From positions 27,959 through 91,958 of IMG/VR virus record IMGVR_UViG_3300032235_000776: a stretch of DNA of 64,000 bases; one strand, given 5' to 3'. A program made the position numbers and the translations under genes. Shown piece by piece: positions 6,070 through 26,900 of this stretch. The stretch comes from a virus. Positions within the stretch are counted from its first letter, which is position 1; every line of letters begins with the position of its first letter. The notes below the pieces were generated by a model. It saw only the letters and a list, made by a program, of their open reading frames with translations, did no database searches and was not told the origin of the DNA.

Positions 6070-6118
6070 GAATAATAATAATAAATATGTTAAATTTTTT
6101 GAGTATATTTAATTAAGT

Positions 6119-8228: not shown

Positions 8229-11200
8229 TGGATAGTTTAGATAACAGTGTAATAACGACCCTTAATGCCGGCATGATAAAAGATGTCGACCCTCAATTAT
8301 TAAAAGAGGGCCAATATACTCATGCAATTAATTCTCAATTAAACTCACACCTTGGTAACTTTTCTTTTATTCAAAATGAACCAGGTAATAGATTATGTCT
8401 TACTTTACCAAATAACCTACAGTTCTTAAATGCTATTGCACTTCAAAACTCAAGGTTTGCTATTCTGTCAACCAACTCAACTACTTCAGAAATAGGTATT
8501 TATGATAGTAGAACATGTACATATACTACAGTAGTTAATGATCCATGTTTAAACTTTCAAAAGACAAATATTCCAAAGGGTATATCAAAAGAAAATTATG
8601 ATTGCTCAGAGACTATTTATTTTGCCGACGATTTAAATCCAAATAGATTTTTAAATTTAGGCAACGTACCTTACAAGTATACTTTTGCAGATGATGCATG
8701 TAAAACAAAGATTTATACTACAGAGTTAGATTGTGATCAAATGTTAATTGATCAATTAATTAATGTCCCATGCGTTACAATATCTAAATCACAAGCCGGT
8801 GGTACATTAGTAAATGGTTCATACCAAGTATGTATGGCTTATTCTATTAATGGTCAAATTGTTACAAACTATTATAGTACTACAAATCCACAGCCTATAT
8901 TTACTCATGAGAATCTTGGACAAGCAATTGATGTAGAATTAACCAATCTTGATCCTGACTTTTCTGAGTATCAATTATTCTTAATTGCAACTGTAGCTCA
9001 ACAAACAACTGTTTACAAAGTTGGAACATATAATATTAACACTACTGCTGTTACTATATCAAGTATAACAGAGAATACAAACGTTCCCCTATCTGATTTA
9101 TTTTTACAAAAAGTAGTTTATACTACCTCAAGAGACATTATTTCTGTAGACAACAGAGCAATGTGGATTGGTGCTAAGACAAAAGTAGAATTAGATTATC
9201 AATTACTTGCAAATCAAGTAACTGCTAAATGGGTTGCATATGCTGTACCGGTAGACTATTATAAGAACGGAGGTTCTATAGTTGGTTACATGAGAGATGA
9301 AACCTATGCTTTTGGTCTTCAGTGGTTATATAACACAGGTGATTATTCACAAGTATATCCTTTGATAGGTAGAGCTGCTGTTCCAAGTGATAGAACTAAA
9401 ATAACAAATAAAGATGCATATGAATTTTTTGCAAAAAACTGTGAACCTGTTAAAGCCGTTGAAAGATGGCAAGCTTACAATACTGCTACAGGAGCCATTC
9501 CAGCCATACCTGCTTCAGATTGTAAGGAGTTTGTTGTTGCTACCGGCAACATGGCCTATGTAGAATCTACAGAAACCTATCCAAATAATACAGCACTCTA
9601 TGGTGATTTAGCATGTACACCAATTAGACACTTTAAATTTCCAGATGAATGTATCGTACCAAGAAAAGTAAATGGTAATGATACTCAGATGATTATACTG
9701 GGTATTCAGTTTGAAAATATCAAACACCCGGTAGATAGTAATGGAAATCCCCTTACCAATATAGTTGGTTATAGAATTGTAAGAAGTGACAGATCAAATA
9801 ACAAAACAATCCTTGGAAAAGGATTAATGTTCAATGCTGGAAAATACGATTTACCTGTATCAGATAAAACTACTATACCAGCTATTTATCCTAACTATCC
9901 ATTCAATGATTTAAGAACAGATAGTTTTCTTTCTAAGACTCCGGTAAAAGGAGGAACAAAAGAAAAAGGATACACTCCAATGGGAGAGTATCTTAATGAC
10001 TACTTCACTTTCCATTCTCCTTCATTCTCATTTGCTAAACCATCTTTTGGAACTGAGTTAGTAATTGAAGCAGAAAACTATGGCCAAACTCATAGTCAAT
10101 TTACAGATGTATATGGTCATCCTAAACATCAAATGCTTACTGATGTAGCTTTTATAGTTGCAGCATTACTTGGTATTGCAGAGGGACTATATGCTACAAA
10201 AGATAAAGAATGTGAAAGTATTGTACTTAAAATGATTAATAACGGTGTAACAGGTACACCCGGAACTAGTGCTGGTAGTCCTGCAATGGGGGCAATTATC
10301 ACTGGTTTAAATAATACTAAAACAACTTTAGATGCTACAAGAACTGCTGGTAATTCAGAGGTAGTTAATAATGCAATTAAATCAGCAGAAAAATCTGCAA
10401 TTGCAAGTGCTGTAGGTGCATTAATTACTCCAGGTTTAGGAGGAGAGGTAACATACACAAGTGAAAAATGTGATTCATTACTTTCATCACTTCCGGAAAT
10501 TTTAAAAATTGCAAATAGTGTTTATCTATTTTCATTTTATTTTCAACAAGGATTTCAAACTGCACTTAATGCAATTAGAAATTTTGGACAATTTCAACAA
10601 TATGCTCTACAAGTAAACTCACATTGTTACTACAACAATCATGCATGTGCAGTAGAAGGTAATAAAAGAAGATATATTGACAATGCAAATTACTTATATC
10701 CGGCAATGCAAGACTTTGAAGGATATAGAGTAAATAACTTTAGAAGAGAAAGTAGTGTATTATTTAAATTGAATGACACTATTAATCCTCCAAGTAATAA
10801 AGATACTTCTAGACAAACTTTAAAAGAATCACAGGCTTGTGATACATTTGAATTTAATGCACAAGCAAGTTCTTACTATGGTTCTATAAGACAAAAATTA
10901 CCTGCACAATATGGTCAAGTAAACTCTATAACTTGGTTAGACACAGGAGCTTGTCATGTAATTGGGACTATTCAAAAATCATATTCAAGTGGACCTGTCT
11001 TTGGTGGAGATACATATCTTAATAGATTTTCTGTTAAGAGACATATGCATTACTTTAACCAAAGTGAGTTTATGGAAAATGATGGTCATGAATTTAATTA
11101 TACAAATTATTATAATTTACCATATGCAAGGTATTGGATGAATACAGAAGCATTTGATATTTCATCATTAATATCTTTGGATCCTAAACTTCCAAATGAT

Positions 11201-12967
11201 TTACATAATTTTAGTAGATGTCATAAGAAGGGTAGAACATCTCAATTAAACTCTCCATTTATTATAAACAATGAGTATTTTTACTTATCAAATAATTCAG
11301 TAATTGATTTCTTTGTAGAGAGTGAAATAAATATTGACTATAGAGATTGGGAAGAACAACCATACTTAAGACACTATGACAGAGATATTTACAATGATTT
11401 AAATACATTATTCAGATCTGATTATCTTGAATATGACAATAGATATCTCTATGATAAATCTTTATCAAAGCAATTAACAGAAAACTATTGCATGACTCAG
11501 GATATTTATTTTGATAAATCTTTATCACAAACTTGTTTCTCAAATTATCCTAATAGAGTATATTGGTCATTACCATATTATAAAGAGCAAATTAAAGATA
11601 GTTGGGGATTTTATTTACCTGGAAACTATTTTGATTTTCCAGGTGTAGCCGGTAAATTAACAGGTGCCAAAGCACTTAACAGAACTAATATATTCTTCTT
11701 ATTTGAAGAGTCTGCTCCTTATTTACATCTTGCTCAGGATACGTTAGAATTAGACTCTGGCCTTAAAGTAACAATTGGAGATGGTGGGTTATTTGCAAAT
11801 CCTCCGGCTCCTATAATGAATACAGATGTTAAATATGGTAACTGTGAATCCAGATTTGCATTAACCAATACCCAACATGGATTATTCTATGCATCTATTA
11901 GACAAGGTAGAATATTTAATGTACAAGCCGGTGGAGGATTAAAAGAAATTTCTCTTGGAGGTATGTCATTCTGGTTTAAGAAAAACATGCCTTATAAATT
12001 ACTTAAGGACTTCCCTAACTACCCATATACCGATAATACTATTATTGGTGTAGGATATCAATCGGCATATGACAATACTGATGAAATCTATTATCTAACA
12101 AAGAAAGATTATAAATTAAGATCTGACTTAGAAGGAACAGCTATCTATGATGTAGCTACCAATAGATTTAGATATACAGTAAGAGGAGTAACTTATACAA
12201 TTAAACTTAGCGATCCAGATTATTTTGATGATGCATCATGGACAATATCTTACTCACCTAAAACAGAGACTTGGATTTCATTTCATGACTGGCACCCAAA
12301 TTCTTTACTCCAGGAAGAAACTAAATTCTGCAGTATCATAACTCCTACAACCGGATCATCAAGTTTATGGAGACATAATGATAGATGCGATGCATACTCT
12401 AATTTTTACAATACTCAATATCCATGGGAAGTAGAATACGTAGTAAATAACGGAATGAAAACTTCTTCTTTACAAAGTATAGAGTACTCATTGGAGTGTT
12501 ACAAATATTACAATGACTGTGATGATAACCATCACCTACTTGATTATAACTTTAATGAAGCTATTATTTCTAATACCGAACAAGTATCTGGTTTATTAAA
12601 ATTAAACCTCCAGGCAAAAAATCAAATGTCTGCAGTGCTTGCTTTTCCAAAAATAAATACTAACTTTATAGATATAGAATATAGTAAAGTAGAACAGAAG
12701 TATAGATTCAATCAATTCTGGGATATTACCAGAGACAGAGGAGAATTCACCGGCAATACAATACAGACATTTATTACAGATGCTGATGGATATCACTCAG
12801 TAATTAATCCTACTTATGTAGATTACAACAAGGCTCCTTTCCAAAGAAAGAAATTCAGACATAACTGGCAAAAAGTTATGCTAAGAAGAACTCACACTGC
12901 GGATGAAGTACAGCCTAAAATGATTCTTAAATTTAATAATAATAAACAAATAATATCACCACGATGA
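8228..12967 (+). CDS. Tail stabilization / muzzle protein (P22 gp10-like position)
   Basis: 1579 aa. Motifs GMIKD, IYFADDLNPNRFLN, GYMRDETYAFG, IRHFKFP, FGGDTY and WTISYSP...WISFHDW are recognisable from crAss-like muzzle proteins. Confidence 0.8.
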   Translation: MDSLDNSVITTLNAGMIKDVDPQLLKEGQYTHAINSQLNSHLGNFSFIQNEPGNRLCLTLPNNLQFLNAIALQNSRFAILSTNSTTSEIGIYDSRTCTYTTVVNDPCLNFQKTNIPKGISKENYDCSETIYFADDLNPNRFLNLGNVPYKYTFADDACKTKIYTTELDCDQMLIDQLINVPCVTISKSQAGGTLVNGSYQVCMAYSINGQIVTNYYSTTNPQPIFTHENLGQAIDVELTNLDPDFSEYQLFLIATVAQQTTVYKVGTYNINTTAVTISSITENTNVPLSDLFLQKVVYTTSRDIISVDNRAMWIGAKTKVELDYQLLANQVTAKWVAYAVPVDYYKNGGSIVGYMRDETYAFGLQWLYNTGDYSQVYPLIGRAAVPSDRTKITNKDAYEFFAKNCEPVKAVERWQAYNTATGAIPAIPASDCKEFVVATGNMAYVESTETYPNNTALYGDLACTPIRHFKFPDECIVPRKVNGNDTQMIILGIQFENIKHPVDSNGNPLTNIVGYRIVRSDRSNNKTILGKGLMFNAGKYDLPVSDKTTIPAIYPNYPFNDLRTDSFLSKTPVKGGTKEKGYTPMGEYLNDYFTFHSPSFSFAKPSFGTELVIEAENYGQTHSQFTDVYGHPKHQMLTDVAFIVAALLGIAEGLYATKDKECESIVLKMINNGVTGTPGTSAGSPAMGAIITGLNNTKTTLDATRTAGNSEVVNNAIKSAEKSAIASAVGALITPGLGGEVTYTSEKCDSLLSSLPEILKIANSVYLFSFYFQQGFQTALNAIRNFGQFQQYALQVNSHCYYNNHACAVEGNKRRYIDNANYLYPAMQDFEGYRVNNFRRESSVLFKLNDTINPPSNKDTSRQTLKESQACDTFEFNAQASSYYGSIRQKLPAQYGQVNSITWLDTGACHVIGTIQKSYSSGPVFGGDTYLNRFSVKRHMHYFNQSEFMENDGHEFNYTNYYNLPYARYWMNTEAFDISSLISLDPKLPNDLHNFSRCHKKGRTSQLNSPFIINNEYFYLSNNSVIDFFVESEINIDYRDWEEQPYLRHYDRDIYNDLNTLFRSDYLEYDNRYLYDKSLSKQLTENYCMTQDIYFDKSLSQTCFSNYPNRVYWSLPYYKEQIKDSWGFYLPGNYFDFPGVAGKLTGAKALNRTNIFFLFEESAPYLHLAQDTLELDSGLKVTIGDGGLFANPPAPIMNTDVKYGNCESRFALTNTQHGLFYASIRQGRIFNVQAGGGLKEISLGGMSFWFKKNMPYKLLKDFPNYPYTDNTIIGVGYQSAYDNTDEIYYLTKKDYKLRSDLEGTAIYDVATNRFRYTVRGVTYTIKLSDPDYFDDASWTISYSPKTETWISFHDWHPNSLLQEETKFCSIITPTTGSSSLWRHNDRCDAYSNFYNTQYPWEVEYVVNNGMKTSSLQSIEYSLECYKYYNDCDDNHHLLDYNFNEAIISNTEQVSGLLKLNLQAKNQMSAVLAFPKINTNFIDIEYSKVEQKYRFNQFWDITRDRGEFTGNTIQTFITDADGYHSVINPTYVDYNKAPFQRKKFRHNWQKVMLRRTHTADEVQPKMILKFNNNKQIISPR

Positions 12968-13488
12968 AAACTTTAAAAAGGATTCTAAAAAATTCATCTA
13001 CAGTAATCACACCTAAGATTGTAGATTTACTGAATTACAGAATTGAACAAGAGGAATATTCTTCTCGTATGTACTTAGCAATGTCTATGTATCTTAATGA
13101 TAAAGGTTACATGGGTGCTGCAAAACTTTGGAAAAAATACTCCGATGAAGAAATGACTCATGCACATTTAGCATATGAGTTTCTTTTAGATATGGGTATT
13201 CAACCTAAGGTACCGGCACTTAAAGCACCACCACAAGATTTTGAAGGACTTGTAGATATTGTATACCAATCTTATGATCATGAGATTGAAGTATACAACC
13301 AATGTTCTGAATTAGCAAAAGTAGCTATGTCAGAAGGAAACATGATGCTATATCCTTTAGCTCTGAGATTAACCGGAGAGCAACAAGAAGAACTTGGTAA
13401 ATTACAAAACTGGATTGACAAAATTGAAACCTTCGGACAAGAGCCTATGCTATTAAGAGAACTTGACGAAGAAATGGGTGAAGCATAA
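12964..13488 (+). CDS. ftnA: Non-heme ferritin (FtnA-like) with short basic N-terminal extension
   Basis: Ferroxidase residues in expected spacing: EQEEYSSRMY, DEEMTHA, HEIEV, EQQEE; 174 aa. Confidence 0.88.
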   Translation: MKTLKRILKNSSTVITPKIVDLLNYRIEQEEYSSRMYLAMSMYLNDKGYMGAAKLWKKYSDEEMTHAHLAYEFLLDMGIQPKVPALKAPPQDFEGLVDIVYQSYDHEIEVYNQCSELAKVAMSEGNMMLYPLALRLTGEQQEELGKLQNWIDKIETFGQEPMLLRELDEEMGEA

Positions 13489-16400
13489 TGAAAAAATTAA
13501 AAAGAGAGATCCCAAAAAACTACTCTTTTTTGGATCTAGTAGCTCCTAGCTATAATCGTGTAAAAATAACTCCTAAATTTGTAGAGGGAGGAGGTACGCC
13601 TATTAAAATGACAGAGCCTACTATGTTTATGCCTCCTCAATCTTTAAACTCAGGTCAGCCAGCATTATTAAATAGTACCAATGAATTTGATTGGAATAAA
13701 CAACGTTTAATAGATCCAGGCAATGCTTTATGGAATGAACATAAAAAGTTATATCCAAATCATAAAGATGGATCAAAATATCATGAGTATTTTTTATGTA
13801 ATTTAAATCCAGATATGTGTGGAGGACCAAATCCACAATTTAGAAATATTAGAAATTCACAAAACCCTGAAATCCAACAACTTGTAAATGAGTTAGATCC
13901 TTTATTTGATAAACCTGATAAAAATTATAGCTATACTTTAGAACAAGCTTTAAGTAGTAGAGCTAGACAATACTATAACAAAGAAGTAGGTTTAGATGCT
14001 GATGAAGTTTTAAATAAATTAAATAAAACAAATTTAACAAGTGATCAACAACAAAAACTACAAAGACTGTATGATTTGTCCCTTAAAGATTCAGGAAATG
14101 AAATTGTATATAATCCAAAAGAAACCAATCCTTATGCTCAATATACTGTAAACTGGAAATCACCATCTCAATGGAATTACCAAAACAAAGCTGCTAAATT
14201 CTATAATGACCAAGAAGCATTTGCAACAGGAATGGACGCTTGGAATAATAGGAATTTAAATACTGATACTGTGCCAAATATTCAAGCACCAGTTGTCAAT
14301 ACACCAACTCCGATTACACCAAAGGTAAATCCAATTAATTTACCTCAAATGCAGTTTCCAAATATGCAATCTAGTAACTTAGAACCTATAGACGATACTA
14401 GAAATACATCTTTAAGAGATTTCAATCCATTTGGAACTCCACAAATTACACCACAAGTACCAAATACTATTGCTACTAATAAAACTACATATCCTATATC
14501 TTTACCTAATTCTCCATTAAATCCAAATTATAAACCACCTGTAAACTCCGGATTTAGTATGACAAATCCATATGATTCTAGTAAAACATATGCAGGAGAT
14601 TGGTTAAATAGATTTAAAGAAACAGAGCGTAATAATAATCCAGAACTATCTCAGGATGAAATAGATAGAATTACTGCGGAAGATAATGCTTTAAATAATA
14701 TTATAGATAGTAACTATGGATTTAATTCTTCTAGTATGCCAAGGGTTAATGAAAATATATCTAATAACCAACTTGCAAATCTTCCTAATCAAAATCAATG
14801 GTCAAATTTACAAGAACCATTACCAGTTCAAAGACCTTCTGAATATGCAGATCCACAGCAAGCAATTATAGGAAGTATTAAAACTGATTTTAAACCAGCA
14901 GATCCTGCAAGTGCAACTTTAGAAAAAACTAAAGACAAAACAGATTCTACAAAAGGATTCAATTATAAAAGGGCTGCTAGAGTTGGAGCATTTAATGCAG
15001 GGTTAAATCTTGCAGGAAACATGTATAACATGTCTAGAATGAGAAATCAAGAAAACTTTAATAGTTTTATTACTCAACAACCAGAAGCTATTTATCCAAA
15101 TAAGAGAATGCTCTATGGGGATAAATCTATGTTTGCAGAATATGGTGGAGAATTTATAAAATATGAAGGGGGAGGAAGTTGGACTGATTATCTAAATCCA
15201 ATGAATTGGGGAGTAGAGGATTATAGTGAATATTCTAAATTTGCTAATGCATATAGAACAGCAAAATCAAATGGTAAGGAAGAATTTCTCTGGAATGGAA
15301 AACGTTATAATACTAAATATGCAGGTACTCCAAGACAAGAAATAGGAATGTATGGGGCAAATGGAAAAAAAGTAAGTCCTAAACAAATGAATAATCCATA
15401 TTTAGTTAACTATTACACTCCAAAATTAGGATATTATTTACCAGGACATATAGAGGCAGCAAATAGAGAAGGGTATGCGGTTAATAATTCATCTAATGGA
15501 AATTCTTCATTTGGAATAGATCCTGCATATGAACCACATAAAGGTAAAAGTTCTTATTTTGTGTATGGGGCTGACTCTGCAAAATTTAGAAACACAGTTA
15601 GTAACTTACCAATGGGAGATTATCAATATCTTTTTGATGAAGAGGAATTAAAAGCTAATAAATTTAATACAGGAAAATCAACATGGAATTTATTAACAAA
15701 TAACTGCGCTGATGGTGTATGTGATGCTTTTGGAATACCTAAATCAGGTAAAGTAACACATCCAGTTTCTACTCTAAGTAAAATATCTAATAAGTATCCT
15801 ACTTTAAATATAACAGGAAGAGATATGGAAACATATGAAAATAAAATAAAAGAATATATAAAAGCAGATAAAAATAATATTTTAAAACAAAGTGAATACT
15901 TTTTAGGTATTGTTAACTCTCCAGAATTTGTAAATGGTAACTCTTCTTATAGAAAGAAAGTTATAAGCGCTATTCAAGATTCTTTACATAAGTCAGGTTA
16001 TAGTTTACCTAATTCACAAAAATCAAATGGTACATTTGATGGAATTATGGGACCAGAAACACAGACTGCGTTACAGAAATATAATCAACAAAGTTCAAAG
16101 AAAAAAGAAAATGGAGGAGAATACCAGGATGAAGATCTTATAGATATATCACATTTAATTCAATTCAAAAAAGGTGGTATTTATATTAAGCCGGAAAACA
16201 AAGGTAAGTTTACCGCATGGGCCCAATCTCACGGAATGTCCGTACAAGAAGCAGCTTCTCATGTAATGGCAAATAAAGAAAAGTATTCTTCTACCACGGT
16301 TAAACGTGCAAACTTTGCAAAAAATGCATCTAAATGGAAACATGAAGATGGTGGACAATATTCTTATGGTGGTCATTATATTCCAATGGATGTTCCATAT

Positions 16401-16685
16401 CTTGCAGGTAAGTTTGTTCCTAACCCAATTGATTTACAAGAATTTAAAAAGGGTGGAATGATTAAGCGTGCAGATGGTTCATATTCTAAAAGAGGATTAT
16501 GGGATAATATCAGAGCTAACAAAGGTTCCGGTAAAAAGCCAACCAAAGAAATGCTTAAGCAAGAAAGAAAAATTAAAAAAGGTTACAAAGCAGGAGGTGA
16601 ATACATGGAAGGTAATGAGTATGAAATCTCTGGAGTAGAATTAGAAAGATTAAGATCTTTAGGATACGATGTAGAAATAATATGA
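13488..16685 (+). CDS. Modular putative internal (cargo) virion protein: GG-delimited modules incl. permuted papain-like domain and peptidoglycan-binding domain
   Basis: 1065 aa. Repeated xxGG motifs, GHIEA...WNLLTNNC, DGIMGPETQTAL (PG_binding_1-like) and basic mini-modules. Confidence 0.65.
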   Translation: MKKLKREIPKNYSFLDLVAPSYNRVKITPKFVEGGGTPIKMTEPTMFMPPQSLNSGQPALLNSTNEFDWNKQRLIDPGNALWNEHKKLYPNHKDGSKYHEYFLCNLNPDMCGGPNPQFRNIRNSQNPEIQQLVNELDPLFDKPDKNYSYTLEQALSSRARQYYNKEVGLDADEVLNKLNKTNLTSDQQQKLQRLYDLSLKDSGNEIVYNPKETNPYAQYTVNWKSPSQWNYQNKAAKFYNDQEAFATGMDAWNNRNLNTDTVPNIQAPVVNTPTPITPKVNPINLPQMQFPNMQSSNLEPIDDTRNTSLRDFNPFGTPQITPQVPNTIATNKTTYPISLPNSPLNPNYKPPVNSGFSMTNPYDSSKTYAGDWLNRFKETERNNNPELSQDEIDRITAEDNALNNIIDSNYGFNSSSMPRVNENISNNQLANLPNQNQWSNLQEPLPVQRPSEYADPQQAIIGSIKTDFKPADPASATLEKTKDKTDSTKGFNYKRAARVGAFNAGLNLAGNMYNMSRMRNQENFNSFITQQPEAIYPNKRMLYGDKSMFAEYGGEFIKYEGGGSWTDYLNPMNWGVEDYSEYSKFANAYRTAKSNGKEEFLWNGKRYNTKYAGTPRQEIGMYGANGKKVSPKQMNNPYLVNYYTPKLGYYLPGHIEAANREGYAVNNSSNGNSSFGIDPAYEPHKGKSSYFVYGADSAKFRNTVSNLPMGDYQYLFDEEELKANKFNTGKSTWNLLTNNCADGVCDAFGIPKSGKVTHPVSTLSKISNKYPTLNITGRDMETYENKIKEYIKADKNNILKQSEYFLGIVNSPEFVNGNSSYRKKVISAIQDSLHKSGYSLPNSQKSNGTFDGIMGPETQTALQKYNQQSSKKKENGGEYQDEDLIDISHLIQFKKGGIYIKPENKGKFTAWAQSHGMSVQEAASHVMANKEKYSSTTVKRANFAKNASKWKHEDGGQYSYGGHYIPMDVPYLAGKFVPNPIDLQEFKKGGMIKRADGSYSKRGLWDNIRANKGSGKKPTKEMLKQERKIKKGYKAGGEYMEGNEYEISGVELERLRSLGYDVEII

Positions 16686-18910
16686 AAAAACTTAAGAAAC
16701 CCAATATTAGAATAGTAGATCACAAGGATGGTGGAATGTCATTCTTTGCAGAAGGTGGAGAAACAGAAAATCCTCCTAAATTATATCCTAACCCTAGTTT
16801 AACATGGGCAAAAGATGTACAAGAATTTGTAAAATCCCAGGATGCTAGAAAAAAAGCTGAAGAAATTGCAAAAGCAGAAGCTGCTAAAACTGCTAATTCT
16901 ACAGAAAGATTTAAACAAAAACCAATTCTAAAAACAGGTAAAACAACAGCATCGGATAATGCAAGAGTAGTGGATCAACAAATAGTAAATCCATATACCC
17001 CAGAAGAATTTGATTATTTTAAAGAAAATAATATCCCAAAAGAATTATATCCATATTATAAAAAACAACTTGATACTTGGAAACAAGGAGATATACAAGA
17101 AGCAGCTAATATAGTCCAAAGAAGAAAAGATGTTGCCGAACAAGCAAAAAAAGATATTGCTAAAGGGCTATATACACAAGCAGTAGCAGAAGATTTATCC
17201 AATGCATACAGAGCATTTCCAGATGATGCAAATAGTTTTTTTGATAATTATATAAATCCTTTTCAACGTGTTTTTAATCCACTTGGAAATATATCTGGAC
17301 ATTTTGCAAGTAATGCAGGACCAATTAATCCATTAGGTTTAGCAATGGATGTTATACCTGCAGCATTGGATATAGCAGGATTAAAAGGAACACAAAGTTT
17401 ATTTAAACCACTTGCAAAAGGTATAAAAAATACTACAACAGGATTTGGAAAAAATGCAGTTAGGTTTAGAAACAACTTACTATCTAATATGGATAGAAGA
17501 CTTACAAATTTTGATAGTGATATTAGTGATGCTGTTTCAAGATATAATAGAAATAGAGTTACTACTATAAATCAACCTAATTTAGAACAAATAAGAAGTG
17601 CATTTCACAATAGAGAAAGAATTTTAAGACCAGAGGAAATAGAACTTATAAACCGTAATGGAGTTGGAATAAGGAGTAATTATGTTTCTACGGATAATAT
17701 TCAATATAATCCGGAAGTTTTTAGAACTAGAGAAAACATTCATACAAATAATCTAAATCAATTAAATTTAGATTCTATTAGTAGACCATTTAATATTTCA
17801 GATGTTATAGATAATGTAAAACCAAAAGTTAGAAATAGATCAGGATTAACAAAAGATGAAGTATTGGAAAAAGCAAATCCTACCAATAAAGATAATATAT
17901 CCAAAATGTCTGAATCACAGTTTGAAAAAACTGTATTAAAACCAAATGGAGAATTAGAAGAATATCAAAATATTATTGAAAATCCATTTGTTGGGAAAAA
18001 TAGTATTTATCCTTTAAACAATGATGATTACGTAGAATTATTTAATTCTAAATTAGATACACTTAATGATATTATAGCTCGTAATAATACATCTGGAATT
18101 GAATATAGAGTTTCAAAATTACAACCTCATGGTGTATTACAATTTGAAACTCCTGCACAAACAATAAAACAAAACATTCCTAATATTAAATATCAAGAAT
18201 TACAAAATTTAAATAAAACAAATAAAAACTTATTAGAAGATTTAAATTACTTAAAAAATAATCCAGATCCTAATGATCCTTGGTATTCAAAAGCACTTGA
18301 TTCTCTAAATAAAAGAATAGAAAAAAATAATAAACTTGTAGAAGAACTTAAAAATGAGCCGGAATATTTATTACAAGATGTAAATATTCCTGCTGGAAAA
18401 AAAGCATGGGGAGTAAATATAAATCCAGGAGAATGGGAAGGAAATGTAGAAGATATTACAAACAAAAGCTACTTAAGAAGAATTCCTGGATTAGAAATGA
18501 ATAATGCTTCTGCTGGGATATTTCCAGATGGTGTAGTAAGAAGAGGAACAAAAGCATATGATTCTATAAATGAATACCTTAAATTATTTAATTTGGGTAG
18601 AGTTAAACCAGGTTTTAATTCTCAGACAGAATATTCTAAAGGATTATGGGAAAATGCTATAAAATCAGGAAAAGCAGTAGGATACTTTAATGATCCTAGC
18701 ACAGTATATGGTTCAATGAAAACAATAGCACCAATTATTGGAGGAGGTCTAATGTACAATTATTTAAATCCAAGTAATACTCCACAAGAAGAATTAGGAG
18801 GAGGAATACAACTTTCAAATAGAATGTATGAGGAAGGCGGAGAGTATGAACTATCCCAAGAAGAAATAGATAGACTTAAGTCACAAGGGTATGACTTAGA
18901 GTTATTATAA
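16682..18910 (+). CDS. Putative cargo/effector virion protein with GNAT-like C-terminal payload
   Basis: 742 aa, no Cys seen. HKDGG/FAEGG at the N-terminus. Shares a C-terminal tag with the upstream protein. RRGTKAY...SQTEYSKGLWE resembles GNAT motifs A/B. Confidence 0.55.
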   Translation: MKKLKKPNIRIVDHKDGGMSFFAEGGETENPPKLYPNPSLTWAKDVQEFVKSQDARKKAEEIAKAEAAKTANSTERFKQKPILKTGKTTASDNARVVDQQIVNPYTPEEFDYFKENNIPKELYPYYKKQLDTWKQGDIQEAANIVQRRKDVAEQAKKDIAKGLYTQAVAEDLSNAYRAFPDDANSFFDNYINPFQRVFNPLGNISGHFASNAGPINPLGLAMDVIPAALDIAGLKGTQSLFKPLAKGIKNTTTGFGKNAVRFRNNLLSNMDRRLTNFDSDISDAVSRYNRNRVTTINQPNLEQIRSAFHNRERILRPEEIELINRNGVGIRSNYVSTDNIQYNPEVFRTRENIHTNNLNQLNLDSISRPFNISDVIDNVKPKVRNRSGLTKDEVLEKANPTNKDNISKMSESQFEKTVLKPNGELEEYQNIIENPFVGKNSIYPLNNDDYVELFNSKLDTLNDIIARNNTSGIEYRVSKLQPHGVLQFETPAQTIKQNIPNIKYQELQNLNKTNKNLLEDLNYLKNNPDPNDPWYSKALDSLNKRIEKNNKLVEELKNEPEYLLQDVNIPAGKKAWGVNINPGEWEGNVEDITNKSYLRRIPGLEMNNASAGIFPDGVVRRGTKAYDSINEYLKLFNLGRVKPGFNSQTEYSKGLWENAIKSGKAVGYFNDPSTVYGSMKTIAPIIGGGLMYNYLNPSNTPQEELGGGIQLSNRMYEEGGEYELSQEEIDRLKSQGYDLELL

Positions 18911-18916
18911 AGAATG

Positions 18917-18948
18917 CTTGGAATACTGAGGTATTTTCCGTATCTTTA
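18917..18948 (+). promoter_or_regulatory. Near-consensus Bacteroidota-type promoter
   Basis: CTTG (18917-18920), 20-nt spacer, TATCTTTA (18941-18948), in an intergenic gap before ATG 18994. Confidence 0.55.
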
Positions 18949-18993
18949 ATTATAATTATTTACCCATAAAAATAAATAATAAAAATTATTAAA

Positions 18994-20982
18994 ATGAATA
19001 AAGTAAAGGTGAAAATAAAGAAACTCCCTATTAGTAATCAGGGTTCACCAAATTTCAATGAAATGGCTTACCAATATACTAGTAGTAATCCTCTGTCTTT
19101 CAAAGACTTAAAGGATTCTACAAGAATGATTGGAGAGGATCAATATGAAATAGGAACTAATTATCCTACAGAAAAAGATCCAAAGAAAGCAAATATAGAA
19201 GCAGAAAAAGGAGAATTAATTCTCACCAAAGACTTTGAACTATATAAAATCAATGGTAAGTCCCATGCAAAAGGAGGTGCTCCATTGTCTGTAAACGAAG
19301 GAGACTTTATCTTTTCTAAAAAATTAGAAGGATCCGGTAAGGATTTTAATAAAATATTTGGTAATTTTGACGAGAAAAAAAAGTACTCATATGCAGATGT
19401 GGCATCACGATTCCTAAAAATGAATGACCACAAAGTTCTTTCTACAGATTCCAATCCTATTGATAGAAAAACTGGAGTTAGAATGTATGAGGATTACAAA
19501 GATAAATTAGGCATGTTAGCATTCTTACAAGAAGTATCAAAAGGTTTACCAAATGGAATTCCGGCAATTGCTGCTCCTATGATTGAGAGATTAACTCAAG
19601 CTCCTATGGGCATGCAACCACAAATGCCACAAGGACCAGTAGAAGGAATGCAACTTCCAATGATGGAAGGACAAGAACCTCCTATACAAGAAATGCCTAC
19701 TGCAGGTCAACAAATGATGAAAAGAGGCGGGCCAATTCTTAAAAAGTATGTAGATGGTGGTGGAGAACAAAAATTAACATCTCAAGAATGGGATAGTAAA
19801 TATTACAAACCTCTTATTCAGTATTTACAAAAAACTTATCCTAATCAACAATTTAATATTGGTAACCACGGTGACTATCAAAGATTAGTAACTAATACTC
19901 CTGAGACATATAATGTATTAAAGGACTATTACACAACTGATAAAATGAAAATTACCAATAAGGGTAGAAAAGCTTTAAAGGCGGCCGGTGTAAAAGATGC
20001 AGATAAAATTGAGTACTATTCTCAATTACCAGATACTTATAAAACAGATGATTTTATTAAAGATCAATTTGTAGACGAGTTAGCTGGTTATAGAGGTGCA
20101 AACTTTATTCCAGAAGAAATTGTAAAGGCCGAGGAACCAATGGTCTATAAACAACCAGAACAAGGTCCAGAATATAACGAATTAGAAAATCCTGACACAG
20201 GAGGAAAACCCGTAGTATCTAATTACAGAAACTTAGGATACAACACAAATGAAAATCTTGCAATGATGAATGCATTACAAGCTATGACTTCTATTCCTTA
20301 TTATGCCCCTACAAGAATGCAAAACTATGGTTTACAAGAAGGCATGGGCCTTGCATCTAACATTATGCCTTATAACTATCAATCATTAATTAATGAAGCC
20401 AATAGATCCGGTATGAGAGGATTTCAAGCAAACAATGCATTTGCTGGTAACCCAAATATTGCAGCAGCTCGTAATGCTATGATAGCAGGTCAACTAGGAG
20501 AACAAACCTCTAAGATTAAAGGAGAAGAATACAATCAAAATGCTAACTTGTATAATACTAACCAAATGCAACTTGCACAAATGGCTGGACTAATTGGTCA
20601 AGATAAAGAACAACAAGGTGACTTGTATAACACAAGAGTAGTTCAAGGTAGAGAAAATAAATGGGCAAATCAACAACTTGCTAATAAACAATTTATTCAA
20701 GAACTTGTAAATGCAAATAATAATAGAACACTTAGAAATACAGTAGACTATTTAATGCAATCTCGTGATCCAAATTATAGATTTGCAAATGCAGATTTAA
20801 TGTCTGGATTTAATCAATTTGCAGATCCATTCTCTTATGTAGGGTCTTCAACTCCCGACGCAACAGGTAGAACTTCTCAGTACATAAAAGATTTTAAAGC
20901 ACTTTCTGGAGCAGGCTTAGGATTGACTCCTGCTGATATAGCAAAAATATTAGGTAATAATTACAAAGACCAAACTCAATAA
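18994..20982 (+). CDS. Conserved crAss-like cargo protein
   Basis: 662 aa. ANIEAEKGE...GKSHAKGG...FIFSKKL domain, MKRGG/YVDGG motifs, N/Q-rich helical C-terminus; lies upstream of the RNAP block. Confidence 0.6.
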   Translation: MNKVKVKIKKLPISNQGSPNFNEMAYQYTSSNPLSFKDLKDSTRMIGEDQYEIGTNYPTEKDPKKANIEAEKGELILTKDFELYKINGKSHAKGGAPLSVNEGDFIFSKKLEGSGKDFNKIFGNFDEKKKYSYADVASRFLKMNDHKVLSTDSNPIDRKTGVRMYEDYKDKLGMLAFLQEVSKGLPNGIPAIAAPMIERLTQAPMGMQPQMPQGPVEGMQLPMMEGQEPPIQEMPTAGQQMMKRGGPILKKYVDGGGEQKLTSQEWDSKYYKPLIQYLQKTYPNQQFNIGNHGDYQRLVTNTPETYNVLKDYYTTDKMKITNKGRKALKAAGVKDADKIEYYSQLPDTYKTDDFIKDQFVDELAGYRGANFIPEEIVKAEEPMVYKQPEQGPEYNELENPDTGGKPVVSNYRNLGYNTNENLAMMNALQAMTSIPYYAPTRMQNYGLQEGMGLASNIMPYNYQSLINEANRSGMRGFQANNAFAGNPNIAAARNAMIAGQLGEQTSKIKGEEYNQNANLYNTNQMQLAQMAGLIGQDKEQQGDLYNTRVVQGRENKWANQQLANKQFIQELVNANNNRTLRNTVDYLMQSRDPNYRFANADLMSGFNQFADPFSYVGSSTPDATGRTSQYIKDFKALSGAGLGLTPADIAKILGNNYKDQTQ

Positions 20983-20984
20983 AA

Positions 20985-23972
20985 ATGGCATCATTCGTAC
21001 CACCTCAAGTAGATCATAATTTATATACACCAATTCTGCCACAGGATAATGTGATGCAGATATTTAGTTTGTTGGATCAAAAGCAACAATTTTATAATCA
21101 AGGTGTTAAAGCAGCTCAGACTAAAATATCTTCAATGCTATCTCTGGAAAAAGATGTTACATCTGAACCAGTAAAAAACATGGTAACTGATTTTAATACT
21201 AAAGCAAATGATCTAATTAAACAATATTCAAATCTTGATTTTTCATTACAGGGTAATGTACAGTTAATTGATAATATCTACGATCCATTATTAGATAATG
21301 AAGTATTTTTAAATGATTACACTGCTACTAAAAATTATAATACACAAGCTCAGAGAGCACTTAGTTACAAAGATTCAACAGATGAAAAAACCAGAAATCT
21401 TTTTAATCAAAAAAATCTTGACATACTAGATATTAAAAGACAAGATTTGGCAGGGGCAAAAACTGAAAAAGATATTAAAGTATATTCTGCTAGACTTGCA
21501 AATACTTCATATACACCATATTACGATTACAATGCTGAGTTAATGGGATATATGAAAGATAACAAGGATATGTTTGAAATGGTAAGAGATGAAAGATCCG
21601 GGGGAGTTATAATAAGTCATAAAAATGGACCACAAAGATATGAGTCCCTTAAATCTTTTGTGGATACTTATCTATCTGATAAAGCCAGAAATCAAATTGA
21701 AATTGAAGAAAGTGTGAATTTTGCAAATTCATTAAGATCTTCAGGATTAACTAAAGAACAATTTTTAAATCAAACTATAACAAATTCCAAAGAGTCTTTA
21801 GAACAAGAAACTCTTCAAAAACAAAAAGAAGTTGATCAAGTTTCTGATTTATTAAAGTCTTATCCTAAAACTAATTTAAATACTAAACAACAAGCTGAAG
21901 TAAATCAGTTAAATGAAATGCTTCAAAAGAGAACTAGCCTACTTGAAAAAAGTCAATCAGTACTTTCTAACTTTAATAACTTCATGCAAAAAGCTACAAA
22001 TGGTGAAGTAGAATTATCTAGATATTATGATGTAGCAGAAAATCTGGTAGTGACTGATAGTATAGAAAAGAAAATAAATAATCTGGCTTATGGTTTAGTT
22101 GGTCCGGAAAGTATTACTATAGCAAGTGATGTAGCATATTGGGAAGGTGTAAAAGAAAGTAGATTAATGAAAGATCTATTACATACAATTGATAATGATG
22201 CTATAAAAAATACTTTAGACGCTAAAAGATTACTTTTAGATGCAGCTAAAGAAGGATTAGTATGGGATCCTAAAACAGAAAGTTATTTACCATCTACATA
22301 TGGAATTACTCAAAGTTTTTATGGAGCATCAACAGCTGAACAAGGTGTAATAACTCCAACAACAACAGACTCTTATAACTCTTCTTTAGAAGAGATAAAT
22401 AATACTCAAAGAGATAATACTATAGAATCTACTATGAAAATAGTAGAGGCACAAGCTTTAGCAAAAAACACTCCTTTAAATAATAGTGAGTTATTATTAT
22501 TAAGAAAAGTAATTACTGAAAATCCTTTAAATACTTCTATTGTAGAGTTGTATAAAAAATATGCTAATGATCAGAGTATAAGATCAGTGTTAACTAAATC
22601 AGGAATAGGCCAAACTAAATTCTTAAAAAATAATTTAGGTGGAGTTTTATCGGGATTAGTTACAGATGCTGAAAATTATGTAAAAAATACTAGTAGAGAT
22701 CAATCTGGTAGTAACGCTGGTAATTATGATTTATTAAACAAAACTTTATCAGATCATTCTATTAAATCTAAAATGATTGATATTGAAAAAACAATTTTAG
22801 TAGATGCATTAAAAAAAGATGTCGAAGAATTTGAAAAACAATTTCCGGAATATAAAGGTAATTTAAAAGTTGATGAAAATGGAAAAATAGTTGTACTTGA
22901 TGAAGATAAAGAAAACGATATAAATCCTATTTTATACTCTCCAACTCCAGCTTATGAATTAGCTAATACAGCTTTAAATTTTTTATTTCCAAAAATACCA
23001 AAAAATACAACTCAAAAATTTAACGAATTCTTAAAAACTCAAAAAGGAGCACTCGGTAATGTTGGAAAATATATGCAAAATACAATTGCTTCTGAACAAG
23101 GTACATTTGATTGGTTAGCTCAAAATAAACAACTATATCTTAATAATCCGGAAAACTATCAATTAACTGAAGAAGAGTATAATATAAGTAACTATAAAAA
23201 AGATGCAGCAGCCTACTGGGACACTGAGTCTACAGAAAGAAATGTATTAAATAGTATTCAAGATCAGTTTTTACAAAGTATTGGCGATGAAAGATTTAAA
23301 CTTGGAAATAAAAACTTAATGTCTGTAGGTTCAAAAGTTATAGAAAGATCAGGATCTACAACTGTATACCCTACAATATCTTATTTAAGATATATTTTTG
23401 GATTAACAGATGCAGAAGGAAAAGCATTAGACATCGAAAGAACTGGAATAGTAGATGATGATAGTTTTGATAAAATGCTGACTGCAGTTTCAAAATATGG
23501 TGTTACTATAAAAACCCCGGGAACTAAAAACAAAAATTCTTTAAATATGCAAACGTATTTAAATGCTGGAAATATAATAGATTTGTCAAAATCTAATGCA
23601 GGTTCAACTGTAGATTTTAAATTAGCACAATCTTCAAATAAAAATAGTTACGCAGTTGAAGGAAAATTTAAATCAGAAGATGACTTTTTCTTTGATAGAT
23701 CATATTTTTATACTGCGGATCCAAATACTAACACTATAAAACCTTATTCTTCACAAGCTAATTATTATAAATTTGATTTAGCTCCTGGACAGTTGGATGA
23801 AAGTATTATTCCACCACTTAACGAAGGAATTGATACTCAGTTATTTTATAATCAAAAAAAGAATAATACAAATACAGTAAGTAATTTTATTAATTACTTA
23901 AAACAAAAAAATATATCTACTGATAAAATTAGTGGAGCAATAATTATGGATTATTTAATTTCACTAAAATAA
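20985..23972 (+). CDS. Putative ejected/cargo virion protein
   Basis: 995 aa, helical/coiled-coil, no Cys seen; YTPYYDY motif; immediately upstream of the giant-protein block. Confidence 0.55.
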   Translation: MASFVPPQVDHNLYTPILPQDNVMQIFSLLDQKQQFYNQGVKAAQTKISSMLSLEKDVTSEPVKNMVTDFNTKANDLIKQYSNLDFSLQGNVQLIDNIYDPLLDNEVFLNDYTATKNYNTQAQRALSYKDSTDEKTRNLFNQKNLDILDIKRQDLAGAKTEKDIKVYSARLANTSYTPYYDYNAELMGYMKDNKDMFEMVRDERSGGVIISHKNGPQRYESLKSFVDTYLSDKARNQIEIEESVNFANSLRSSGLTKEQFLNQTITNSKESLEQETLQKQKEVDQVSDLLKSYPKTNLNTKQQAEVNQLNEMLQKRTSLLEKSQSVLSNFNNFMQKATNGEVELSRYYDVAENLVVTDSIEKKINNLAYGLVGPESITIASDVAYWEGVKESRLMKDLLHTIDNDAIKNTLDAKRLLLDAAKEGLVWDPKTESYLPSTYGITQSFYGASTAEQGVITPTTTDSYNSSLEEINNTQRDNTIESTMKIVEAQALAKNTPLNNSELLLLRKVITENPLNTSIVELYKKYANDQSIRSVLTKSGIGQTKFLKNNLGGVLSGLVTDAENYVKNTSRDQSGSNAGNYDLLNKTLSDHSIKSKMIDIEKTILVDALKKDVEEFEKQFPEYKGNLKVDENGKIVVLDEDKENDINPILYSPTPAYELANTALNFLFPKIPKNTTQKFNEFLKTQKGALGNVGKYMQNTIASEQGTFDWLAQNKQLYLNNPENYQLTEEEYNISNYKKDAAAYWDTESTERNVLNSIQDQFLQSIGDERFKLGNKNLMSVGSKVIERSGSTTVYPTISYLRYIFGLTDAEGKALDIERTGIVDDDSFDKMLTAVSKYGVTIKTPGTKNKNSLNMQTYLNAGNIIDLSKSNAGSTVDFKLAQSSNKNSYAVEGKFKSEDDFFFDRSYFYTADPNTNTIKPYSSQANYYKFDLAPGQLDESIIPPLNEGIDTQLFYNQKKNNTNTVSNFINYLKQKNISTDKISGAIIMDYLISLK

Positions 23973-23973
23973 A

Positions 23974-26900
23974 ATGGATTTTTTAGAATTACCAAAAAAC
24001 AATTCAGGAATTGTAGAGTCAGCTGACAAAAAAGGTTTAGGGCTAAATGATATACTATCAAAACCTTTAACTAAAGAACAAATACTAAATAACCCTTATG
24101 CGGTTATACCTCTAAATAAAATAGAAGGGGTTGGTAGATATTTAAATTCAAGTACTTATAATAAATTAGGATTTTCATTTGATCCTGATTTAGATACTAA
24201 ATATTACAAAGAAACTCCTTGGTATAAGCAAGTAGGTAATGCTACTGGCCAATTTTTTGGACAAGCTGGTGCTGCTTTTGATGCTCAATTCTCAAAATTA
24301 GAACAAATAAAGGAAACATTTGGAACTACTGATGGTGACTACTTAAAAGATGCATTTCAAGCTTCTGAGGATTTAAGAGAGAAGTATCCCGTATTTAAAT
24401 CTTCAAATGAAACTTATGGTATACTAGGTTATATTCCTTTTGTAGGAGATTCATTTTCAAAATGGACAAATTTTATTCCTAATTTAGGTTTTACTGCCGG
24501 TACATTAGGAGGTGTATTTTTAGAAAATGCAGTTGCAACTGCAATTATTGAAGCTACAACTGGTGGATTGGGTACACCATTAGCTACAAGTAAATGGGTA
24601 AAAGACTTATATAGTGGAATTAAATCTATTAAAAGTTTTAATGACATTAAAAAAATGGCGACTTTCGCTAAGGTTGGAGAAGGAATATATGAAGCTGAAA
24701 AAGTATTAGGAAGTGCAGGTAATATTGTTAGGGGAGTAGAAGCAATTAAAGCAGGTAAATCTCTTAAAGGATCCTTACACTCTATATATGGAAGTTATCA
24801 ATTATATTCATCTGCAGCTGCAGAAGCATTAATTGAAAATGCTAACTCAGTAGGTGAAGTTATGAAAGATTTTAAAACTGACTTCATTGATAAAAACGGA
24901 AGAGAACCAAATGGAGAAGAACTTGCAAGAATGCAAGAATCTGCAGAAGGTTTAATATTACCATCTTCACTTGGTAATATAGGTATTTTAATGGCCTCTA
25001 ACGCATTACAAGAAATGAATGCGTTTAAAGCCGGTAAATCATTATCATCATTTGCAATATCAGGTAGTGGTAAAGTTGGAGAAGCAGTTGGTAAAAAAGT
25101 AATATTTGATAAAACTACTGGGTTATATAGAGATAGATTAGCAAGTGAAATTACAAAGGGTAAATGGCTATCAGCTGGTAGATTTTTATTAGGAGTTGGT
25201 TCAGAAGGTTTAGAAGAATCTGCACAAGGAGTAGTAGCAGAGGCTACAAAGAATTATTTTAAAGCAAAGTATTATAATAAACCAATTGGTTGGACCGATG
25301 CTCTTGGACAAGGTTTTGCATATGCAGCATCTGATCAAGGTATGGAAGAATTTTGGGCCGGTGTAGTAACAGGTGGATTATTTTCTGGAGGAGGTAAAGC
25401 AATTAATCAGTATCAATTTAGAAAAGATGAAAAAGCTTTATTTAAAAAAACTGGAAAAACAATTGATCAGTTAGCTCAAGATGAAAGAAAAGATCTTAAT
25501 GAAGAAGTAATACCACTTTTAAAATATAGTTTAGCTACATCTCAATCTTCTGAAAATGTAAAAGTACAAACTGTTGTACAACAAAAAATGAATGAAGCCT
25601 ATTCTCAAGGAAAACAACTTCAAGGAGATATATACAGAGGACAAGGTTTAAATAAAGCAATGTTTACTGCTAAGTATTATGGAAAAGATCAAGAGTTATT
25701 AAATCACTACAAAGAGTTAAATAAACTTGAAAGAAGTGATTTAGCAAAGTATTTAAATGTAGAAGAAAATCAACTAGCTTCACCAGAAGAGTTTGAAGAA
25801 ACTATAAAAGACCTAGAATTTTTATCAGCCAGTATAGATAGAGCAGCAAAAAAAGTACCTAACCCTGGAAAGAAAGTCAATATTTCAGATCCTAAATATG
25901 CAAATATGGATCCTAAAGAAATGCAAGAAGCTTACATAAAAGACAGTGTAATGTTTGAAGCATGGCAAGGTGCTCAAGAATTATTGGTGGCTCAAGAGTT
26001 TCTTCTTTATAAAACAAAAAACAAATATAAAAATCTAAAATTAGATTTAGAATCTACTAATGTATCTTTAGATCTGTTAGCAGCTGTAATGTCTAGAGAT
26101 GATGAGACTTCTGCTTTACAGAAAAAGTTATTTTTCTTACAAACAAGGTTAGAAGAAACAGATGAAAAACTTAAGACGCAAAAAAACAAAAAAGAACTTA
26201 AAAATTTAAAAACTGATAAAGAAGAACTTACAAAAGAAATAGATGAAATAAAGGAAAAAGTAAAAGGTGATCTTCCAAGTAATCCAACAATAAATTACAT
26301 TACTGAATTAACAAAAAGAATACAAGAAAAAACTCAATCTTTACAATCTCTTAAAGAAGCTGAAAAAACAAAAGATCCTTTATATACACAGTATTTAGAA
26401 GAAATAAGAAATCTACAAGAAGAATTTTTAATTGTAGCAGATGAACGTTTAAGTCAAGAAGAAAAACTTACTAGAATTAATGAATTAAGACCAGACGATA
26501 AAAAGTTTAAATTTAACAGAGAGGACTTACTTAGAGAAAGTAATGTAAATAATCTTAATGATGTAATTAATGCATTTGATCTTCTAGGTGAATTAAAAGA
26601 AACTATAGATTATTCTGAAGATGTAATTGGAAACCTTAGTTCTCCAGAAAAAATGCAAAAATATGGTGCATTAATGTTTGATAGAATCTATAGAGCTAGA
26701 AAAGAATTATTCAGTAATATATTAGCAGGAAAAACATCTGAAGATATAGAGGAAGAAGATGAAATTATATCTGAAACAGAAGTAAAAGAAAAAACTAAAG
26801 AAAAAAAGAAAGCCCCTTTTAAACCAGGTAATAAAGTTATTTATCAGGAAAAAGAATATACTCTTGATAAAATAGAATTTAAAGATGGTGAAAGCACTTA

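Follow-up and report, generated by a model that had tools for sequence, protein, structure and literature searches.

Conserved Gly-Gly junction peptides at the module borders of three consecutive probable cargo proteins of a crAss-like phage

Three consecutive genes at positions 13488–20982 of a 64,000-nucleotide stretch of viral DNA (IMG/VR record IMGVR_UViG_3300032235_000776, positions 27,959 to 91,958; the whole stretch is called the window below) encode proteins A, B, and C, in which a short motif ending in Gly-Gly recurs, and the question raised by this locus is what that motif is for. The original prediction, made from the DNA letters alone, regarded the copies as processing sites or capsid-docking sites that would let the phage load a swappable set of effectors into the head. 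We show here that these peptides are conserved, lie in predicted disorder between modules and are the exact points at which modules are gained, lost, or swapped in relatives. Our preferred explanation, held tentatively, is that the seams are uncut flexible couplers and module exchange points. The region 13488–20982 itself is most likely a cargo-protein block in the virion module of a crAss-like phage, with products that are likely carried in the particle and injected. The features of the block are the following (window coordinates):

13488–16685, + strand: cargo protein A, 1065 aa, with an N-terminal region, a hydrolase and peptidoglycan (PG)-binding module (module 2), mini-domains M3 and M4, and a C-terminal tag; 10 GG sites
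15153–16103, + strand: module 2 of A (aa 556–872), a tentative His...Cys papain-like hydrolase plus a PG_binding_1-like domain, bounded by YEGGG and KENGG
16173–16355, + strand: mini-domain M3 (aa 896–956), basic and helical, between FKKGG and HEDGG; predicted local distance difference test score (pLDDT) ~90; phrog_20603
16452–16598, + strand: mini-domain M4 (aa 989 to ~1037), very basic (15 K+R in 48 aa), between FKKGG and YKAGG
16593–16682, + strand: C-terminal tag of A, starting YKAGG-EY and ending G-Y-D-V-E-I-I; short helix, pLDDT ~79
16682–18910, + strand: cargo protein B, 742 aa, with an N-terminal GG doublet (HKDGG, FAEGG), modules of unknown fold, GGG sites, and a C-terminal tag
18836–18907, + strand: C-terminal tag of B, YEEGG-EY ... 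G-Y-D-L-E-L-L
18994–20982, + strand: cargo protein C, C1-like core, 662 aa, with a portal-binding-like N-terminal domain (aa ~57–204), a GG doublet MKRGG...YVDGGG (19717–19764), a hypervariable middle, and a conserved C-terminal domain

All of the approximately 14 motif copies that had been reported in the three proteins were found in place, and the pattern used then, [FYHMK]xxGG, was present 14 times in A, B, and C together compared to 8 times in all other open reading frames (ORFs) of the window. To avoid a post-hoc pattern, [YMFH]xxGG was taken from the logo of 119 relatives. This pattern was found 13 times in the 2,469 aa of A, B, and C and 11 times in the 24,688 aa of the rest of the proteome, so the motif is not equally frequent in both but 11.8-fold enriched in the three proteins (Fisher p 2.7e-8); 5,000 composition-preserving shuffles gave a mean of 1.6 and a maximum of 7 copies. 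Plain GG sites (10 in A, 5 in B, and 4 in C) were significantly enriched in A alone (10 compared to 4.9, p 0.009), and only modestly so in B (p 0.11) and C (p 0.63), which shows that the signal lies in the flanked motif and not in glycine content. While the motif copies are real, two of the GG sites were not junction copies, namely MCGG at aa 112 of A and HAKGG at aa 94 of C, the latter lying within a fold. The Gly codons of the motif are mixed (GGA, GGT, GGC, and GGG). Thus, it is the protein sequence that is conserved rather than the DNA, and a DNA-level repeat or microhomology at the seams was ruled out. The 119 relatives contained 1,945 GG sites compared to 1,131 expected, and the family logo over 1,377 unique contexts showed Y, M, F, or H at position -3 in 55%, A, K, E, or Q at -2, and I, L, M, or V at +2. 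The bias at -3 was present in each of three families searched with one query each (56, 38, and 64% compared to a background of 13%).

The proposal that the motifs fall at module borders stood for most copies: 8 of the 10 GG sites of A were located at steps in homologue coverage, 5/5 of B at the ends of matched stretches, and 3/4 of C at the edges of conserved domains, although borders of B at approximately aa 260, 296, 378, and 565 do not contain a GG. Nearly all of the 652 homologues of A found in a metagenomic protein collection share pieces only (mosaic architectures), and coverage along A changes stepwise between the N-terminal part (aa 1–540, few relatives), module 2 (556–872), M3 (896–956), M4 (989–1036), and the tag (1036–1065). 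In an all-against-all BLAST of the relatives, the median distance from an internal end of a high-scoring segment pair to a GG was 8 aa compared to 24 aa for random positions, the starts gathering just before GG and the ends just after it. The close relatives P0002, P0003, and P0018 do not contain module 2 and have flanks 83–87% identical to those of A; they continue from ...F-A-E-Y-G-G through two further GG units to Y-K-K-G-G and M3, and compared to P0002 and P0003, residues 565–873 of A (309 aa) form a clean insertion between GG units. Insertions of 190–280 aa were found within the H-E-D-G-G / Y-S-Y-G-G doublet in P0004, P0006, and P0008. M3 was shown to have x-x-G-G on both sides in 92/120 listed relatives and M4 to have GG on both sides in 94/120, other protein parts being different. 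This comparison, which had been proposed as a check, shows that the motif is conserved at the borders and that the payload between the copies varies. In an AlphaFold model of A 540–1065, poor overall with a mean pLDDT of 60 (the same mean as for the model of module 2), every GG copy lies in a segment with pLDDT <50 between modules with pLDDT 70–90. Foldseek with this model found nothing at E<=0.001.

The coupler has the form [Y/F/M/H]-x-x-G-G-x-[I/L/M/V] and is often doubled at a distance of 4–7 residues, and the peptide between doubled GGs is patterned (e.g., Y-M-Y-A-E, x-V-K-Y-x-x, or W-L-D-K-Y-x-x). The unit G-G-W-L-D-K-Y was found 90 times internally, at the extreme C-termini of 52/308 proteins, and at 21 N-termini after Met and a few residues. 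Among P0010–P0038 and P0162–P0213, many proteins end in ...N-G-G-W-L-D-K-Y-K and/or begin with M-K-K-W-L-D-K-Y-x-x-G-G, sometimes both. Such terminal W-L-D-K-Y units might connect one cargo protein to the next or serve as a signal at the chain end; A, B, and C do not have the unit at their own ends. M3 or M4 opens an ORF without the motif in cr127 and P0009, and M3 can also close an ORF without it. Besides, a stand-alone M3 was found as a 72-aa ORF without GG flanks, after a Ser/Lys-rich leader, at 5950–6168 of locus L012 on the chromosome of a deltaproteobacterial metagenome-assembled genome (OY970341.1). It lies in prophage-like surroundings with collagen-like fibre genes and a gene that, judged by eye only, is lysozyme-like. 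Since M3 and M4 are found without the motif (cr127, P0009, L012), the seam does not belong to the module folds, and the L012 copy indicates that M3 is an autonomous mobile unit beyond Bacteroidota phages.

M3 and M4 are 60–90% identical between otherwise unrelated proteins. This conservation suggests an invariant target, which could be nucleic acid, the envelope, or a virion part. M3 is present in gp45 of phage crAss001 (residues 373–428) and was found alone in many crassvirus proteins; residues 815–971 of A match a gp45-type protein of crAss001-like phages. No Pfam family was found for A, B, C, or the following ORF D, and the single PHROG contact among these four was that of M3 with phrog_20603 (function not known). 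The N-terminal part of A includes a low-complexity stretch (residues 255–450, 54% N+P+Q+S+T).

The peptidase that the original prediction had placed in A agrees weakly with a papain-like hydrolase in module 2, where a His (PGHIE) precedes a Cys (NNCADG). ESM Atlas gave weak leads to IcsB_M, TseH, and CLN5 at 0.84, and comparison with TseH (6v98) showed Z 4.3 over 103 residues of a low-confidence model, the remaining matches being generic helical ones. However, profiles of PPPDE (PF05903), NlpC/P60 (PF00877), and TseH (PF25218) did not match, the TseH control search matching nothing anywhere, and a hidden Markov model (HMM) of the module-2 family had no match among PDB sequences. The PG-binding unit was recovered as PG_binding_1 at window positions 15963–16088 with 19.7 bits (E 8.5e-5), a score below the Pfam cut-off. 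Because the PG-binding domain adjoins the hydrolase and relatives have SLT or glucosaminidase where A has module 2, a wall-hydrolase role of module 2 is more likely than a role in protein processing.

Relatives of A and B contain ART-PolyVal, ADPrib_exo_Tox, SET, YDG, YkuD L,D-transpeptidase, SLT, glucosaminidase, LysM, DUF192, DUF5754, and DUF5872 domains as payloads. These domains provide a range of candidate effectors for injection by uncultured crAss-like phages. For B itself, 205 representatives were found at E<=1e-3; its module at aa 378–690 is located anywhere in proteins of 163–2525 aa, next to YkuD, LysM, SET, DUF5754, and other domains. B showed no Pfam or PHROG family, tblastn against phage records gave no match, and the ESM Atlas leads were weak (P22 gp16, LPD22, and LPD14, <=0.78). 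No support was found here for the label "GNAT-like" given earlier to a module of B, none of the Atlas leads being to GNAT.

A and B share their C-terminal tag, which consists of ...G-G-E-Y, a short helix, and a terminal G-Y-D-x-E-x-x. The A-type tag was found at the extreme C-terminus in 14/14 relatives. Between muzzle and C, the distant relative L004 has only one 163-aa ORF, which ends in a GG doublet and the tag.

The C family is compact; its N- and C-terminal domains are conserved, and the middle between them is hypervariable. Its doublet M-K-x-G-G ... Y-x-x-G-G is nearly invariant and is located exactly where conservation collapses, G245, G246, and G256 being >=90% conserved beside the hypervariable stretch. 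An hhalign comparison of the C family with crAss_CARG1-bearing proteins gave a probability of 86% (E 4.7e-6, C 82–185), and C thus appears to carry a distant homologue of the portal-binding domain of the crAss001 cargo protein C1. Direct searches did not find this similarity: the Pfam CARG1 model (PF25725) matched none of A, B, and C at E<=0.01, a BLASTP comparison of C with gp45 was not significant, and neither phmmer of C nor an HMM of the C family matched PDB sequences. A search of viral contigs for related loci gave none with C alone and one locus with the C alignment. No transmembrane (TM) or glycine-zipper segment was found in A, B, or C by a crude hydropathy scan, which is not a TM predictor (best 19-residue Kyte-Doolittle means of 0.47, 1.25, and 1.02, respectively).

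The block was placed in its phage by its neighbours in the source record, which is 91,958 bp long and ~75% complete (CheckV):

6622–7290, + strand: tail-barrel ring protein 2; Pfam CrAss_Ring_2, E 5.1e-23
8228–12967, + strand: muzzle protein, upstream anchor of the cargo block, 1579 aa; Pfam crAss_MUZ, E 1.6e-32
12964–13488, + strand: ferritin-like protein between the muzzle and the cargo genes, 174 aa; Pfam Ferritin, E 9.6e-22
20985–23972, + strand: ORF D, in C2 (gp46) position, 995 aa; assigned by position only; 2 GG sites, no flanked copy
23974–47329, + strand: three giant ORFs in the virion RNA polymerase slot, 2641, 2900, and 2241 aa; slot assigned by position; 0.1–0.2 GG sites per 100 aa

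The window has a G+C content of ~30% and a single long run of + strand genes. Upstream in the record, the major capsid protein was matched by Pfam Crass_capsid at genome positions 23106–24719, and portal (genome 19056–21800) and large terminase were matched by PHROGs. These matches together with crAss_MUZ and Ring_2 place 13488–20982 in a virion module. The order is muzzle, ferritin, A, B, C (C1-like), D (C2 position), and the three giant proteins; the order from muzzle to giants was also found in the relatives L001, L004, L007, and L008. In crAss001, the genes after the muzzle encode the cargo proteins C1 (gp45) and C2 (gp46), followed by virion RNA polymerase proteins (PMC10172136). ORFs A, B, and C thus fill the slot between the muzzle and the giant virion-RNA-polymerase-type proteins that corresponds to C1/C2 of crAss001. 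The three proteins are built from discrete modules, as had been suggested, and occupy the position of virion cargo genes in a crAss-like phage. By tblastn of the muzzle, the nearest cultured relatives were Flavobacterium psychrophilum phages FpV4 and Fpv1 and Cellulophaga phages phi4:1 and phi17:2 (26–28% identity), while megablast of the region against phage records gave no match. Among cultured phages, the C1-like proteins contain 20 (crAss001 gp45), 14 (Cellulophaga phi4:1 gp040), and 4 (FpV4 gp30) GG sites, and gp040 and gp041 of phi4:1 were annotated from virion tandem mass spectrometry (MS/MS).

If the seams are couplers, A, B, and C would be built as beads on a string, each bead being autonomous (wall hydrolase with PG-binding domain, basic helical mini-domains, portal-binding domain, and unknown folds) and each coupler standing on the C-terminal side of one module and leading into the next. 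A Gly-Gly hinge with hydrophobic caps would allow modules to fold and unfold independently, and would in this way permit storage of the chain in an extended form and its passage through portal and tail, a route that has been proposed for crAss001 gp45. Insertions would be tolerated at the seams alone, and it is for this reason that the seams would become exchange points. Loading into the head would probably depend on dedicated elements, of which the C1-type (CARG1-like) portal-binding domain of C and the tag of A and B are likelier candidates than the GG motif.

Several observations weigh against a merely passive hinge. Such a hinge needs no strict Gly-Gly, aromatic residue at -3, and hydrophobic residue at +2 across proteins that share nothing else, and this strictness suggests recognition by a partner or enzyme. 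Moreover, a copy lies within the first 12 residues in 32/120 relatives, where there is nothing to join, and the 52 proteins mentioned above end in G-G-W-L-D-K-Y plus 0–1 residue. D and the giants must also be threaded out, yet they have no motif. Finally, the AlphaFold model has the low mean pLDDT given above, and a docking peptide would look disordered in a monomer model too. The seam could be a recognition code, either as the cut site of a Gly-Gly-specific maturation activity or as a multivalent sticker recruiting the flanked modules around the portal, which we consider somewhat unlikely but a serious alternative.

As docking handles, the seams would attach to the portal, to the lumen of the tail barrel, to the muzzle, or to one another, and the modules they flank would be recruited in assembly and ordered for ejection. 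In crAss001 gp45, the modelled portal-bound part comprises residues 425–552 and the barrel-bound helix residues 214–245 (PMC10172136; PDB 7QOG). Both resolved pieces start at or after a motif copy, the helix four residues past Y-G-G (209–210) and the portal-bound part, by the deposited sequence, with A-F-G-G-W-L-x-x-x-G-G (A-F-G-G-W being 425–429). High valency (4–20 copies per protein), copies at the extreme N- and C-termini including the G-G-W-L-D-K-Y unit, and an inter-GG peptide resembling a conserved hydrophobic/aromatic mini-strand or single helical turn are consistent with docking, as is the combination of predicted disorder and strong conservation, a common feature of linear motifs. 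We nevertheless regard this explanation as unlikely. The motif cannot be a general loading code, since D and the three giants, which are expected cargo, do not have it; the C1-like FpV4 gp30 has only its 4 GG sites, and the strict tie to module borders suits a joint better than a free handle. Cleavage after Gly-Gly by a phage, virion, or host protease, which would free the modules in the head or host, appears less likely again. Unrelated modules share the motif and each ends in G-G, short N-terminal leaders end in GG, tails of 5–6 residues follow the last GG, the ORFs in cr127 and P0009 begin where a module would start after a cut, and A carries the tentative His...Cys papain-like module; most motif-bearing proteins, including gp45, however, do not have such a module, and in A it adjoins the PG-binding domain. 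A six-frame search of the record found no C5 adenain, C48 Ulp1-like, C39, or C97 PPPDE peptidase at E<=0.1, no HK97-type prohead protease (S78) was found in the record, and none was seen between the portal and capsid genes; Pfam models alone, applied to A–D, the giants, and 76 sampled relatives, found no peptidase family. As the record is ~75% complete, a protease could be missing from it and its absence is not proven; identical copies of proteins A and C on a 133,960-bp contig show that part of the genome lies outside the record searched. The hydrophobic residue three positions before the first Gly is at P5 and not at P4 as in LXGG or (M/I/L)XGG, and A-F-G-G-W lies within a continuous cryo-EM model of gp45, which shows that this copy, at least, is ordered and has not been cut. 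Proteolysis is mentioned neither in the crAss001 structure paper (PMC10172136) nor in the 2023 Crassvirales review.

Mass spectrometry of crAss001 gave no more than a hint in the direction of cleavage. The published virion analysis reports one excised band without sizes (PMC10172136). The MALDI (matrix-assisted laser desorption/ionization) peak lists of the 2018 crAss001 gel (PMC6235969, supplement 14) were re-matched for bands 3–9 with PhiCrAssBcn9 sequences as proxies. The controls gp47 (band 3), muzzle (band 4), portal (band 5), and the 92-kDa tailspike (bands 6–7) were detected, while gp45 (91 kDa, said to be present in ~12 copies) matched these bands no better than by chance. Bands 8 and 9 had no match among the proteins tried. 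That the motif has no function, being a by-product of glycine-rich low-complexity linkers or of the shared ancestry of a few repeats, is close to refuted: the modest enrichment of plain GG in B and C would fit it, but the 3–5-fold position-specific biases around GG in three separately queried families, the near-invariant GG columns beside hypervariable sequence, the mixed Gly codons, and the Fisher test given above do not.

The closest known system is C1 of crAss001 (gp45; PF25725 crAss_CARG1; PMC10172136), which occupies the same slot after the muzzle, has M3 in common with A, and contains the portal-binding domain of which C appears to have a distant homologue. It is also rich in aromatic-x-x-GG, several of its 20 GG sites being located at domain starts. 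Unlike in gp45, the functions are here divided among three ORFs, additional payloads and a C-terminal tag are present, and no TM/glycine-zipper segment was found (best hydropathy 1.25). Polyvalent proteins (Iyer, Burroughs, Anand, de Souza, Aravind 2017, PMC5512222) are large multi-module proteins of phages and conjugative elements that are delivered with DNA; processing by zincin-like metallopeptidases was proposed for them, and glycine junctions and crAss-like phages are not mentioned. They likewise combine several unrelated domains per polypeptide, and in relatives of A and B the domain order is shuffled (ART-PolyVal, ADPrib_exo_Tox, SLT, glucosaminidase, YkuD, SET). In contrast to polyvalent proteins, no embedded processing peptidase (zincin-like MPTase or assemblin-like) was seen by Pfam models in A–D, the giants, or the 76 relatives.

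Gly-Gly-directed cutting is known from the adenovirus protease ((M/I/L)XGG-X), pS273R of African swine fever virus, the coronavirus papain-like protease PLpro (LXGG), and double-glycine leaders cut by C39 peptidases; to our knowledge, polyprotein maturation of this kind has been described only for eukaryotic large DNA viruses. The seams share with these polyproteins and leaders a short repeated motif that ends in Gly-Gly after a hydrophobic residue, and differ from them in the P5 position of this residue, in the cognate protease family, of which none was found, and in one homologue site that is uncut in the model. In gp38 adhesins of T4-type phages, glycine-rich motifs bracket exchangeable hypervariable segments and mark recombination borders; these motifs lie within one small receptor-binding adhesin fold, whereas here whole domains of putatively injected proteins are joined. 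For the ejection proteins of podoviruses, we know of no such junction motif or module shuffling. They are internal virion proteins ejected before the DNA, one of them with a wall-hydrolase domain, as A probably has; B showed a weak ESM Atlas lead (0.78) to one of them, P22 gp16. These proteins (T7 gp14/15/16, P22 gp7/16/20) serve as the functional analogy for the crAss001 cargo in PMC10172136. The view that no mechanism of this kind had been described is therefore correct only in part: swappable injected modules were already known (PMC10172136, PMC5512222), and the junction motif is found in neither paper. The new part is the conserved junction peptide, which is widespread and apparently undescribed, no account of it having been found in the literature that could be searched.

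Crassvirales, which load and eject megadaltons of protein, are among the most abundant gut phages and are common in marine Bacteroidota. A short junction peptide shared by hundreds to thousands of cargo proteins can help to locate cargo genes in phages that have not been cultured. The seams also map module borders, so that unknown payloads (ADP-ribosyltransferases, SET, wall hydrolases, basic mini-domains) can be expressed singly, and they offer a specific mutational target to distinguish gp45-type proteins that are threaded intact through the portal from proteins that are cut. If the seam were a loading or processing code, foreign proteins could be loaded into crass-like virions in laboratory strains; as a recognition code, it would be a portable tag deciding what a crassvirus injects, and as a cut site, it would make crAss-like cargo true polyproteins.

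The remaining features around the block were also analyzed. The ferritin-like ORF overlaps both neighbours, at its start and at its stop. Its position is empty in L004, FpV4, and phi4:1, and PhiCrAssBcn9 has a DpsA-like gene annotated elsewhere in the genome. BLASTP of D against a gp46-like protein was not significant. The third giant ORF (window 40604–47329, 2241 aa) contains LysM at aa 1524–1554 (E 4.2e-6), which is the only Pfam match among the giants and is unexpected in an RNA polymerase slot. Just after the giants, a 353-aa ORF (window 47728–48789) without a Pfam family has 13.6% glycine and 6 GG sites, two of them with Phe at -3, a GG count that equals the expectation from its glycine content (shuffle p 0.5). 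At the start of the window, one more ORF of the virion block has an end that echoes the cargo tag:

3–788, + strand: C-terminal half of a 536-aa virion-block ORF (genome 27136–28746), ending G-V-D-L-E-V-L

No family or phage match was found for this ORF, and its identification as the major capsid protein was rejected, as Crass_capsid matches the other ORF at genome 23106–24719. In the L004 phage, the cargo tag ends G-Y-E-F-E-M-L-S and the homologue of the 536-aa ORF (locus L005) ends N-V-E-L-E-T-Y.

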